Shown: piece by piece, positions 1 to 4,245 of the stretch | How the letters are laid out: every line of letters begins with the position of its first letter | How positions within the stretch are numbered: the stretch's first letter is position 1 | DNA from: Methanoregulaceae archaeon | GTDB taxonomy: Archaea > Halobacteriota > Methanomicrobia > Methanomicrobiales > Methanospirillaceae | Direction of reading: 5' to 3' | Assembly (NCBI GenBank): GCA_050015095.1 | Contig: JBEKCC010000003.1 | Span: forward strand, 27,388-91,387 | Length of the DNA stretch: 64,000 nucleotides | The notes under the pieces: model-generated | The model's input: only the letters and a program-made list of their open reading frames with translations | Database searches by the model: none | What the model was told of the DNA's origin: nothing | Translations under genes and position numbers: made by a program

Positions 1-1452
1 CGTCGGGTTTTCCAAGGGATGAGCTGAGTTCGCATTGAAGAACCCGCCGCCGTTTGTGCCGAGATGCTTAATGGCGATCTGCGATGCGGCGGGCCCAAGC
101 GGGATAGTCTGCGTGGTCACAAGGTTGCCGGAAGAATCGTTGACTGGGTTGAGGAGCGGCACAGTCACGGGCCCCCCAAACGTTTGGACGGTTCCCTGCG
201 ATACAAGGACGAGCGCTATGATGAAACTGATAGGCAGGAGGATCATGACACTGCGGACGAGCAGCACCCAGAAGTTCCCGATGGTGGTTCCTGACCTGCG
301 TGAGAAGCCGTAGATGAACGCGATAAGAACTGCCATCCCCACCGCTGCAGACATAAAGTTCTGCACGGCGAGGCCGACCATCTGCGTCAGGTAACTGACC
401 CCGGTTTCACCTGCGTATGCCTGCCAGTTGGTGTTGGTTGCAAAACTGATCGCGGTGTTGAGCGAGAGATCCCAGGAGACAGATCCGATGGCGGCAGGGT
501 TGAGCGGGAGGAACTGCTGAACCTCCTGGAGGATGAACACGAAGGTGATCCCGATGAGAGAGAAGATCATTGTCGCGACAGCAAACATCTTCCAGTCCAT
601 CTCTTCATCAGCTGAAACGCCCGAAGTGGTGAGGAGCCACCGTTCAATGGGTTCTAGGACCGGTGAGAGGAACGTTCTCTCTCCCGTATACACCTTTACC
701 ATGAACCCCCCGACCGGGATGATGAGAGCCGCGATCACGACGGCAAAGAGGATCAGCTGGACCCAGTCCATAATCGGAATGCCAAAAAAGAGGGTAGTGT
801 ATTCCGGCGCCGGGGTAAAGGTGGACGCGAAGGGTGTGACAGTGATCCTGCCGGCGCTCAAGTCATCGATCGCGAGGTTGAGGGAGAGGACGTTTACGCG
901 GGGCTCACCGAAGATCCCGAACTGGCGGTGCACGATCTGCTGGGCGACGAGCGCATCGATTACCTGCTCGCTCATGTTCCGCTCCCGGGCAACCCGCGGG
1001 ACCTGATAATATGCGGCCGCGACACTGATATCCGGGTCAAGACCGCTTGCGGACGCAGTGACGAGATCCACCGGGATCGGCCGGGTATTAGTCGGATCGG
1101 CCGCATGGAGTGCCGTGACACGGGCCTTCACGGCATCTGCAAGCGCCGGGTTGGTCGGCCCGAGGTTCGAGCCGGTGGAACTGCCGGCGTTATCGGGAAA
1201 CGGCGTGGTGGCAGATGGCCGACCCCAGAAGTAGGCCGGTGAGGTAAACGGCTGGCCGATCAGCGCCGAGCCGGCGATTGCCCCGTCATGTACGATGAGG
1301 CTGCCGTTTGCCTGCGACGGGAAGACGAGCTGCGCGATACCGGTGATGAGAACGGGATAGAAAATCCCTGTAAGAAGTGTTATCAGGAAAAAGATCACCA
1401 ATGCAGGTTTTACCTGTTTCCGGATCATGGATCGGAGCGTCTCGGTGGTCAT
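1..1452 (-). CDS. kdpC-kdpA: KdpC-KdpA in-frame fusion (K+-transporting P-type ATPase subunits C and A); 3' end lies outside the window
   Basis: The minus-strand frame is open from the ATG at 1452 (GGAG 5 nt upstream) to the window edge, 484 codons. It is absent from the ORF track because no stop falls in the window. Residues 1-~198 match KdpC ([51 protein letters not shown]). From the in-frame ATG at 771 the sequence is KdpA ([45 protein letters not shown]). I re-derived the reverse complement of 721-960 and found no stop between the two parts. Confidence 0.8.
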
Positions 1453-1953
1453 GGGATCTCCGCGTGAATAGTTATCTGACTAGTCGTCGTGTACAGGTTC
1501 ACTATACCAGCGTAACAATTGTAGGTATATACACTCTCCGGTGCTGGGCAGGATCCGGACTGGGTGCACAACCTCCAGCCATTGAATCTGCAGGGCACCA
1601 CTTATATGCCGAAAGAAATCTTCCATGTGTTACTATTAAATCTGTGTGGTTTTGGGTTCTGTTAACTTGTTGTGGAATGGATTTTACTGTTAACTGGCGT
1701 GGGACAATGGAACTAAATAGGTTCTGTTGCATCTACGGTTGATGATCGAAAAGGCAATGGATATTGAATTGTGGTTGGTGGGGCGCAGATCGAAATGTGA
1801 GGATTTAATTTTGATATTGCTCAATGCTTCCCCAATAAGATGTGTTTTTTACAATTCTTTCCATAATATTCTCATCAAGATTATTGTCATTATTCCAGGA
1901 ATCCTGCTATTCCGGCAATTCAACCTAGTTCCCACGGGTATTGAAAATGCCCG

Positions 1954-2160
1954 TTATTTTCTGAGCGCAATGGCCGCATACCAGCGGTGATCGGCATCCT
2001 TGGCTGCCGCAAGTGTGAGAACCAGGGGTTTTACTGCCCGGTCACCATGCTCCGCCAGTGCACGAACCGCATGGTGGCGGTTTTCGTTCTGGGGATCATC
2101 CAGCCGGGCGATCAGCGACGCGATCGTGTCCTTCTCTTTCGTTGTTGTTTTCTGGGTCAT
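1954..2160 (-). CDS. small HEAT-repeat (PBS-lyase-like) protein
   Basis: 68 aa. Two HEAT-like units are visible: LIARLDDPQNENRHHAVRALAEHGD and AAAKDADHRWYAAIALRK. Confidence 0.5.
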   Translation of the reverse strand: MTQKTTTKEKDTIASLIARLDDPQNENRHHAVRALAEHGDRAVKPLVLTLAAAKDADHRWYAAIALRK

Positions 2161-2261
2161 GGAGAGCTCCGTTCTATTAACGTTTCACGTTATGACTGAT
2201 TGTTGTTGCCATCGCACATCTGTTCTGCGGACCGGGACGATCTTCCTGCCCTCACCACCGA

Positions 2262-3392
2262 TCAAGCCATGCCGAGAGAGCGGGGGATAAAGAGGACGCC
2301 AAAGAATACAATCATCAGGACAATTCCAAGGGGAATACCAACTTTTGCCCATTCGCGGCTTGAAATTTTCATTTTCCCTGCTGCAATAATATTGGGGATG
2401 TTACCCGGGATGAGCATCCCACCTGAGATGAGGAGGGCCACGAGAGCGCCGGTGATCTGTTGCGATGACAACGGGGGACTGATCTCTGCTGCTGCAAGCA
2501 TTGCATTGTCAAGAACTGCAGAGACCATGTTCGCCCAGTAAAGGGCTTCCGGAGGGATGCGGATAACATAGTCCAGGATCAGGGGCTTGACCCCTTCCCC
2601 GATAAACACGAGCGCCATGATGAAGAGATACACCTTTCCTGCCCGGACCACCACGTCGCTGATCGTCTCGCGCTCGATAACGCATTCCAGTCTCGTACTG
2701 CCGCTGTGCCGCCGCTTGAAGACAACCAGACCGACAAAGCCGAGAAGAAGAATCGCGGGGATGATATACAGCCCGAGTTTGTGGAGGAGAAACCAGAAAT
2801 CCGCATGGTACGGTACACCGGAGAGTCTTGTGACGACAATAGAGGAAAGCGGTCCTCCGAGAGGGGTAAGTCCGGATCCAAGGCCGATAGCGAAAGATGC
2901 GACAACAGTAATTTCAATTTTTGCCTCTTTGACGAGGGGGAGGGAATTGATGATCTCGATCAGAATGATCGCCGCAAGGATAACGGAGATAATGCTGGAA
3001 ATAAAACCAAGCGCGATGATCAGCGCCGGCACGATCACGGTGAGGGGGACCTTATCCACCAGATGGTTAATAGCCTGTTCGAGCTGGTGATGAAGATAGT
3101 ATATAAGGAGCCCAACAAGGAGAACCACCTGGACAATCCCGACGGGCACCCCACCAACCCTTACGATGTCCAGTGGACTTGTGAGCGCCTCTGCAATGAT
3201 CGCCCAGCTCCATCCCGTTGATTCATTAGGAAGAGCAATAAAACCGGAAATTGTTAGTGCAAGGACACCGCAAATGAAGAGGAAAAACTCTAAATTGCGT
3301 TCGATACTTTTTATTTTAAAAGGGAGCATTAGGACAGCTATGAATATGATGATGAGACCAAGATTCACATAGAATGGGTCCATTTTCTTCAC
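2262..3392 (-). CDS. polytopic membrane protein, putative cation transporter (DUF1646-like)
   Basis: 376 aa and hydrophobic throughout, with about 10 predicted TM helices. The family assignment is from memory only. The track start is GTG at 3392; an ATG lies at 3383. Confidence 0.5.
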   Translation of the reverse strand: MKKMDPFYVNLGLIIIFIAVLMLPFKIKSIERNLEFFLFICGVLALTISGFIALPNESTGWSWAIIAEALTSPLDIVRVGGVPVGIVQVVLLVGLLIYYLHHQLEQAINHLVDKVPLTVIVPALIIALGFISSIISVILAAIILIEIINSLPLVKEAKIEITVVASFAIGLGSGLTPLGGPLSSIVVTRLSGVPYHADFWFLLHKLGLYIIPAILLLGFVGLVVFKRRHSGSTRLECVIERETISDVVVRAGKVYLFIMALVFIGEGVKPLILDYVIRIPPEALYWANMVSAVLDNAMLAAAEISPPLSSQQITGALVALLISGGMLIPGNIPNIIAAGKMKISSREWAKVGIPLGIVLMIVFFGVLFIPRSLGMA

Positions 3393-3578
3393 CTTCGAAT
3401 GAGTAGAGTAACTATGATATATTATCTCTGTGTTAAACCCATAGCAACCTTAAACATTGCCTGAATATTCGTATAAAAAAAATTATTGAGTTATTTCAAA
3501 ATTAGGCCTACCTGTAGTGTAAAGTGACATCGTATCCTTATCCATCCCCTTCATACTTACTAATCTCAAAATCAGATT

Positions 3579-4245
3579 TTATTGTATAGCCAAAAAGAGG
3601 AAATAAACACCTATTATTATAATCATAACACCAATTATTCTGTCGAAAACTTCCCCACCCAATGTTGTAACGTTTTTTATTTTTTTACCAATAGTTCCGC
3701 CAATCGAACTTATTACGATTAGAGGGATGCTCAACCCAATAGCGTAGATCAGCATCGTAAAAACCCCCTGTACTGCAATCTGATAAAGGGCAATGTATGT
3801 CAACACAATAATTAGCATTGGTGCTCCTCGTCCCACTGTAATAGCACCGAATGAAAGTCCCAATAAAAATGCCCCTCACACGGTGTAGGAAGTAGGCACC
3901 TTGAAGAAATCGAATATACTACGTATTGGGGGTTTATACACTTGCAGGAGTTGCAAACCCATCAGGATCAATAGAACTCCGCCGATTGTCCATGCGATTG
4001 TGCTATTTAAAAAAAAGGAGATATTTTCCAACATATCCAGCAATCAAGCCTAGAGGCAATAATACAAGAACCGTGCCAATGCAGAAGGATATCGTGAGTT
4101 TTAAAATATTTGTCAGATTTAGTGAGGTGTCACCGCTCGTCAGATACCCTATCAAACCTAAGCACAATACACTGTTGCAAGGGCAGATACCCGCAATTAG
4201 CCCGAAGATAAAAATGCCAAGCAAAGAAGGGTCGAAAACCGCCAT
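3579..4245 (-). pseudogene. DsbD/CcdA-family thiol-disulfide membrane protein, disrupted by one frameshift and one in-frame TGA
   Basis: The N-terminal ORF (MAVFDPSLLGIFIFGLIAGICPCNSV...) ends just after a T8 run (A8 on the + strand, 4009-4016). Shifting one base there restores ...AWTIGGVLLILMGLQLLQVYKPPIRSIFDFFKVPTSYTV. A TGA at 3876-3878 follows, then the same frame continues as GAFLLGLSFGAITVGRGAPMLII... (ORF 3579..3863). The layout parallels B. subtilis CcdA as I recall it. Confidence 0.55.

Follow-up and report, generated by a model that had tools for sequence, protein, structure and literature searches.

KdpC and KdpA encoded in a single open reading frame in a Methanoregulaceae archaeon and its relatives

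The canonical operon for the Kdp potassium pump is kdpFABC, with a separate polypeptide for each subunit. In the 64,000-nucleotide stretch of DNA analysed here (Methanoregulaceae archaeon, GenBank assembly GCA_050015095.1, contig JBEKCC010000003.1, positions 27,388 to 91,387 of the forward strand; hereafter the window), a minus-strand open reading frame (ORF) at the left edge runs from a complete kdpC into kdpA with no stop codon between them. Is this frame, here called kdpCA, a sequence error, a frame that yields two proteins, or one gene for one fused protein? An earlier note on this DNA, made from the letters of the window, had proposed a true fusion of KdpC to KdpA. Here we present evidence that kdpCA is very probably a real, translated gene fusion, whose product together with KdpB would form a two-polypeptide, KdpF-less, ATP-driven high-affinity K+ pump of the KdpFABC type.

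The frame opens at an ATG (1452-1450; all features are on the minus strand) and stays open as far as position 1, 484 codons in all. In this frame the closest stop upstream is at 1482, and the other two frames are full of stops. The window holds the 5' 1452 nt of kdpCA (1-1452), 484 of its 809 codons, the rest lying past the left window edge. The KdpC part (residues 1-198; 859-1452) comprises a predicted cytoplasmic N-terminal tail with four K/R residues, one membrane helix and a complete extracytoplasmic domain, and ends with Leu198 (codon 861-859). Its membrane anchor takes up about residues 13-45 (1318-1416) as a Kyte-Doolittle segment, and an AlphaFold2 model has a helix at residues 6-43 with a predicted local distance difference test (pLDDT) score above 94. 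There follows, in frame, a linker of 29 residues (199-227; 772-858) in which Ser, Pro, Gly, Thr and Ala abound and which does not span the membrane. The KdpA part begins with Met228 (codon 771-769) and is represented by its N-terminal 257 residues (228-484; 1-771), which take in the first transmembrane helix, pore repeats one and two, and the beginning of the third region, where the window edge cuts the sequence. Two selectivity-filter motifs lie within it: NTNWQ (residues 340-344; 421-435), which aligns with the E. coli NTNWQ including Gln116 and is invariant in 126 fused homologues, and GTNGGG (residues 465-470; 43-60), which aligns with the E. coli GTNGGG and whose columns are invariant or nearly so in the fused homologues. 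Pfam finds the KdpC domain at residues 15-196 (profile positions 2-181 of 182, E = 1e-74) and, within the window, the KdpA domain at residues 235-484 (profile positions 2-243 of 548, E = 5e-95). The ORF and the Pfam matches thus agree with the description in the earlier note of an open minus-strand frame from 1452 with a full KdpC, a 29-residue linker and the start of KdpA as far as the first filter motifs; its coordinates for the linker and KdpA were correct to within one base (771 as against 772).

Extension of the contig to the left, which had been recommended in that note, was made from three assemblies (JGI 3300038427, contig of 622 kb; ENA ERZ4200889, contig of 728 kb; Logan SRR7027743) and recovered the rest of kdpA, followed by kdpB. 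The complete kdpCA product has 809 residues and is identical in the three assemblies. Both of its halves are complete. Residues 14-198 align with positions 4-188 of the 190 residues of E. coli KdpC at about 49% identity (PDB sequences), and residues 233-799 align with positions 9-556 of the 557 residues of E. coli KdpA (6hra_A) at about 49-50% identity (E = 8e-167). The cut-offs of the NCBIfam models are exceeded for kdpA (TIGR00680: 688 bits, cut-off 388) as well as for KdpC (NF001454: 263 bits, cut-off 178; TIGR00681: 228 bits, cut-off 152.6).

In a search of 5.8 billion proteins, all of the top 120 matches (69-91% identity) carried both Pfam domains; apart from a few truncated entries they have 780-832 residues, and several bear the label Methanoregula. 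Clusters of proteins of about 800 residues that combine KdpC with KdpA number more than 200. Regarding the 24 Methanoregulaceae loci that cover the junction (GTDB species representatives, fetched via the KdpD-like neighbour gene), the junction lies in one open frame in 22, whereas the two exceptions are long-read metagenome-assembled genomes (MAGs) with frameshifts in every kdp gene. Over 140 homologues of differing linker length keep the junction in frame and without a stop. Fused KdpC-KdpA proteins are therefore common in related archaea, which answers the homologue search of the junction that the earlier note had advised. The feared alternative, that the junction would be unique to this assembly with separate genes in homologous loci, was not observed, and the proposal of a true fusion gains support from the 809-residue product in three assemblies, the fused clusters and the 22 loci.

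The linker evolves in the manner of translated sequence. Among 25 distinct archaeal loci its DNA falls into length classes of 81, 84, 90, 93, 96 and 99 nt, all multiples of three, and the pairwise differences at codon positions 1, 2 and 3 number 666, 430 and 971 (56, 21 and 112 in close pairs), the pattern expected of coding sequence under relaxed purifying selection. Across 126 aligned fused proteins the linker is 22-32 residues long, with a majority-residue conservation of 0.32 as compared with 0.72-0.74 in the KdpC and KdpA domains. Within the Methanoregulaceae its ends are conserved (LS-x-x-R-I-T-V and F-G-L/M-R-x-x-D-W), which suggests that these flanks pack against the KdpC and KdpA domains. 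In no fused protein is the linker hydrophobic enough for a membrane helix; that of kdpCA has a maximum hydropathy over 19 residues of 0.59. The linker was also considered as a degenerate KdpF: its beginning, SAGRIT, resembles the start of E. coli KdpF, and the idea is likewise suggested by the kdpF found between kdpC and kdpA in some bacteria. This candidate was rejected, as the linker has no Pfam KdpF match even at E ≤ 10 and is not hydrophobic, and a membrane-spanning linker would flip the orientation of KdpA.

An AlphaFold2 model of the whole chain, based on the 126-sequence alignment (a shallow 40-sequence run with a pLDDT of 56.8 was discarded), has a mean pLDDT of 87.3 and a predicted template modelling score of 0.90, with pLDDT values of 58-76 in the linker. 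In Foldseek comparisons, the model matched the KdpA chains of solved KdpFABC complexes with a template modelling (TM) score of 0.94 and a root-mean-square deviation (rmsd) of 3.0 Å, and the KdpC chains (7bgy_C, 5mrw_C) with TM scores of 0.91-0.93 (0.92) and an rmsd of 1.6 Å. The KdpC domain is periplasmic, located at the entrance of the KdpA selectivity filter and anchored by one helix, and KdpF is a single helix at the KdpA-KdpB interface (PMC6255902; 10.1101/2021.01.09.426067; PMC10654040). The four K/R residues in the N-terminal tail of KdpC are as expected for an inside location. In the model, exactly two helices (residues 227-256 and 287-314) precede the first pore helix of KdpA and NTNWQ; since the filter takes up K+ from the outside, the first KdpA helix would run from outside to inside, and the N-terminus of KdpA would lie outside. 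With KdpC's C-terminus and the N-terminus of KdpA predicted on the same side, and a linker devoid of a membrane segment, the fusion is topologically consistent; it would be inconsistent were the KdpC domain cytoplasmic. The suggestion in the earlier note that both joined ends are outside is therefore upheld by the non-membrane linker, the published periplasmic location of the KdpC domain and the two helices ahead of the first pore loop.

The gene order in the extended 22-kb locus (L001) is kdpCA-kdpB-kdpD', with no kdpF. The kdpB gene (700 residues; L001 12423-14525, just left of the window) overlaps kdpCA by 8 nt and scores 1006 bits against TIGR01497 (cut-off 528); DKTGT and TGES are visible in its translation. 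It is followed by kdpD' (L001 14535-16520, left of the window), which encodes a KdpD-like protein of 661 residues with KdpD_N, Usp, DUF4118 and GAF domains only. This protein is devoid of the histidine-kinase half (HisKA, HATPase), so that the locus does not classify as a KdpD/KdpE two-component system; it scores below the NCBIfam cut-offs for KdpD (643, cut-off 1123) and for the KdpD-like non-kinase sensor (372, cut-off 550), and neither a response regulator nor kdpE was found within L001. In all archaeal cassettes examined except L273, kdpD' stands after the pump genes. The ORF lists contain no small hydrophobic ORF upstream of, between or after the pump genes, and a scan for the C-terminal motif of KdpF gave no match in the 64-kb window or in five archaeal loci, whereas it detected kdpF in four control loci from bacteria. 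The non-canonical order read in the earlier note, in which kdpC leads and kdpF is missing, is consistent with these results. Judged by the conserved catalytic and filter motifs, ATP-driven high-affinity K+ uptake would be the expected activity.

Of 243 loci, mostly bacterial, that were sampled through KdpA, about 200 have the order A-B-C(-D). In the archaeal loci kdpC immediately precedes kdpA, and it does so in six bacterial MAGs as well, in which the two genes are separate. At 50% clustering of 15 billion proteins, the few fused clusters were P0121 (806 residues), P0128 (776 residues) and fragments. A search with P0121 returned about 100 further fused proteins, 46-52% identical to P0121 and encoded on contigs of up to 3.8 Mb, from MAGs labelled Methanomassiliicoccales, Methanomicrobiales, Methanospirillum, Methanoregula and, in one case, Lokiarchaeia; one MAG labelled Methanofastidiosum (GC content 0.36) also has a fused gene. 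The order is CA-B-D' in Methanomicrobiales-type loci and B-CA-D' in the Methanomassiliicoccus- and Lokiarchaeia-labelled loci. When KdpA sequences were analysed by neighbour joining, 145 fused ones grouped in one clade (bootstrap 55/100, plus 27/100 when P0121 joins). The bacterial sister of this clade was unstable, being Chloroflexi in one tree and Geobacter/Geomonas together with the Thermodesulfobacteriota-labelled loci L017, L037 and L074 in the next. P0128 was placed elsewhere, among unfused bacterial neighbours; it is closest to the bacterial loci L086 and L087 (62-65% identical) and is probably an independent bacterial fusion, or may be a read-through or sequencing variant.

As far as these sequences tell, kdpCA is no oddity of this contig; within a large clade of archaea the fused form is the norm. 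The simplest reading has a single ancient fusion in archaea, its later spread among them, and one or more independent events in bacteria. The fusion would have arisen once or very few times, in the ancestor of the large archaeal Kdp clade and from a bacterial-type operon in which kdpC had moved upstream of kdpA, and the fused gene would later have passed between methanogens through gene transfer. The sample labels of many related MAGs point to bog, fen or peat (e.g., SPRUCE, 'fen_34'). A fusion of another kind, P0162 (763 residues), joins roughly 450 N-terminal residues of KdpA to the C-terminal part of KdpB and is probably an assembly or deletion artefact.

Could two ordinary genes merely seem fused, because a base-call or assembly error has deleted the kdpC stop or put the frame out of register? 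An out-of-frame TGA is present at the end of KdpC (the other two frames have stops at 865 and 860), and some bacteria have adjacent kdpC and kdpA genes, which in L086 even share a frame and are parted by one stop. Such an error would have to recur in three assemblies that give an identical protein and in the more than 140 homologues, all in frame and stop-free at varied linker lengths, and it does not fit the coding-type substitution pattern of the linker. This comparative evidence makes an assembly error untenable, and the explanation, to which we assign next to no probability, is effectively refuted already. The frame might, on the other hand, be real and still give rise to two proteins, KdpA being released by internal initiation at Met228 or by proteolysis of the linker, in which case the pump would be as in E. 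coli. Two observations count in favour of this and against a single chain: 101 of 123 homologues have a Met within the last four linker residues, and an exposed, flexible and poorly conserved linker is a plausible protease target. In the other 22 of the 123 homologues, however, this Met is missing. The sequence upstream of 771 has no Shine-Dalgarno-like element before Met228, whereas the kdpCA start has one, GGAG at 1458-1461, 6 nt upstream of the ATG and within a GAGG/GGAG block conserved in 23 archaeal upstream regions. Separate initiation of KdpA is thus not a conserved feature. Moreover, selection would not keep an untranslated spacer in frame and stop-free in every length variant, and conserved motifs stand at either end of the linker (LS-x-x-R-I-T-V and F-G-L/M-R). 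We therefore regard separate KdpC and KdpA proteins as unlikely.

The gene may also be a true fusion in a locus that no longer works, namely a foreign kdp module that was gained by transfer, fell out of use and is now decaying. The G+C content at third codon positions (GC3) sets kdpCA and kdpB apart as compositionally foreign (0.73-0.77 versus 0.39 in kdpD'), and kdpF, the kinase domain of KdpD' and a nearby kdpE are all missing. Decay is nevertheless highly improbable in view of the intact frames, the presence of the filter motifs, DKTGT and TGES, the scores above the equivalog cut-offs, and the retention of the same cassette, with homogeneous composition, across many genomes. A fused, uncleaved KdpCA that works with KdpB and without KdpF remains the preferred reading, and three further points weigh against it or against its single origin. 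KdpF could be encoded elsewhere in the genome, beyond the 64 kb plus flanks that were searched by motif and Pfam; the labels 'Lokiarchaeia' and 'Methanofastidiosum' may be binning errors; and the single origin rests on a distance tree of moderate support with a shifting bacterial sister group.

If kdpCA yields such a fused chain, its assembly might proceed as follows. The N-terminal helix of KdpC would insert with its N-terminus inside, thereby exporting the KdpC domain, and the 29-residue Ser/Pro/Gly/Thr-rich linker would remain outside. The first KdpA helix would then pass from outside to inside, and the other nine helices would fold as in E. coli. The KdpC domain would thereby be tethered above the outer mouth of the KdpA selectivity filter, the place that it occupies in the solved complex. 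As in E. coli, K+ would enter via KdpA and reach KdpB by way of the intramembrane tunnel. The tether would ensure 1:1 stoichiometry and co-assembly of KdpC with KdpA and may, as a matter of speculation, make up for the missing stabiliser KdpF.

Compared with E. coli KdpFABC (PDB 5MRW, 6HRA/6HRB, 7BGY, 7NNP), the system has the same three core parts with conserved filter and catalytic motifs, and KdpCA-KdpB presumably shares the mechanism of tunnel-coupled K+ import. In this type of pump KdpA is a channel-like SKT subunit of ten helices and four pore repeats, and KdpB is the catalytic P-type ATPase subunit. The archaeal system differs in that KdpC and KdpA, which are separate in E. coli, form one polypeptide with an external linker (22-33 residues across the family), in that the fused locus has no KdpF and the order CA-B or B-CA instead of F-A-B-C, and in that the adjacent KdpD-like protein is devoid of the histidine-kinase half, with no KdpE nearby. 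The Kdp pump of the haloarchaeon Halobacterium salinarum, likewise archaeal and of bacterial type, is encoded by canonical, separate kdpF, kdpA, kdpB and kdpC genes and is not of the fused form.

The closest parallels in gene order are the six bacterial C-before-A operons, from MAGs labelled Planctomycetaceae (L086), Acidobacteriaceae (L087), Ignavibacteriota (L094), Elusimicrobia (L212, L222) and Leptospiraceae (L234). Their orders C-A-B and B-C-A-D mirror the two archaeal orders, whereas their genes are separate, and in four of the six the interval from kdpC to kdpA still holds kdpF along with a further small membrane ORF. In these gaps (L094 5580-5775, L212 5574-5843, L222 916-1127, L234 5568-5809) kdpF is accompanied by an unannotated hydrophobic ORF of about 27-35 residues, e.g., MPDLMYVGLTALLVGLSFALVRLFEKL. 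In the Planctomycetaceae MAG (L086 5520-5760), a single stop plus three codons separate kdpC from kdpA, and both genes use one frame. A more distant likeness is that of KdpC to the beta subunits of Na,K- and H,K-ATPases, which have a single helix and an extracellular domain and are thought to tune K+ affinity (PMC6255902; PMC10654040); they are unrelated to KdpC in sequence and are not known to be joined covalently to the subunit that binds the ions.

Full-text literature searches, which covered few subscription journals, turned up no account of KdpC and KdpA being fused in nature, and a recent review of P-type ATPases describes Kdp as a heterotetramer without mention of a fusion. NCBIfam has no model specific to the fusion, and public databases name the fused proteins only 'KdpA' or 'A chain'. 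Hundreds of archaeal 'KdpA' entries thus also contain KdpC, and such genomes may seem to lack kdpC. Where KdpC lies was debated for a long time, and its role is not yet clear (PMC10654040; PMC6255902). Because a non-membrane linker only works with both of its ends on the same side, the natural fusion offers independent evidence for KdpC on the outer face together with KdpA. A working Kdp pump is apparently possible without KdpF and with two polypeptides, which would offer a simpler natural system for structural and biochemical work and a template for single-chain constructs. The fused KdpCA is a genuine but modest variation on a thoroughly studied complex. A bolder view, conceivable although rather doubtful, is that the KdpF-less KdpCA-KdpB and the kinase-less KdpD-like protein represent a distinct archaeal subclass of P1A ATPases, in which the tether would be needed for assembly or stability in the role of KdpF, the KdpD-like sensor (possibly through its Usp domain) would regulate the pump directly instead of acting as a two-component transcription switch, and kdpCA-kdpB would be a self-contained two-gene module moving between methanogens.

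GC3 is 0.73 in kdpCA and 0.77 in kdpB, compared with 0.39 in the adjoining kdpD' and 0.34-0.46 in most other neighbours; the exceptions with likewise raised GC3 are the DUF1646 and HEAT genes and a solute-binding/permease pair. In 16 other loci the GC3 of kdpCA, kdpB and kdpD' differs by at most about 0.1. Nucleotide identity to the GC-rich relative L084, in 300-nt windows, is 80-93% (mostly 85-88%) across kdpCA-kdpB and falls to 63-76% exactly at the kdpB/kdpD' boundary, where the GC content changes from 0.59 to 0.42. Identity to another GC-rich relative, L273 (87.8% overall), breaks off precisely where kdpB ends. The closest relative, P0002 (91% amino-acid identity), has kdpCA-kdpB without kdpD' in a different genomic context, and its DNA similarity also stops at the end of kdpB. 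The GC3 contrast and the drop in identity suggest that the two-gene module (L001 10001-14525) was recently replaced by transfer from a GC-richer member of the Methanoregulaceae; a chimeric assembly is unlikely because three assemblies agree. This compositional mosaic suggests an exchange of genes for high-affinity K+ uptake among the methanogens that carry them. A second GC3-rich patch lies left of the window at L001 19251-21512, in a branched-chain amino-acid ABC system: GC3 is 0.68 for its solute-binding protein and 0.57 for one permease, as against about 0.37-0.40 for the other components.

Upstream of kdpCA, the leader and promoter region of the kdpCA-kdpB(-kdpD') unit is a non-coding stretch of 501 nt (1453-1953) with no credible ORF and no kdpF, which matches the approximately 500 nt of non-coding DNA without a kdpF-like ORF given in the earlier note. 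A c-di-AMP (cyclic di-AMP) riboswitch controls some bacterial kdp operons (PMC6488665). A riboswitch or other known RNA in the leader was rejected as a candidate, as Rfam returned no match at E ≤ 1 in positions 1-4000; in the whole 64 kb no family, tRNAs included, reached its gathering score. An alignment of 23 archaeal upstream regions revealed two conserved promoter-like modules. The proximal one (1505-1532) consists of a TATA-like sequence, GTATATACC (1532-1524), followed by a conserved palindrome-type site, whose window copy is TTACGCTGGTA (1515-1505) and whose family consensus is ACCAGCACGCTGGTA. The distal one (1611-1640), present in most Methanoregulaceae upstream regions, consists of a TATA-like sequence, TTTAATAGTA (1640-1631), and a degenerate TGGAA-N6-TTCCA inverted repeat (1625-1611). 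Both modules may be putative binding sites for some regulator, and the window copies are partly degenerate.

Beyond the leader, the next minus-strand genes encode a HEAT-repeat protein of 68 residues (1954-2160; GC3 0.61) and a DUF1646 membrane protein (2262-3392; GC3 0.58 versus a background of about 0.4). These two genes may belong to the kdp patch or to another transferred patch.

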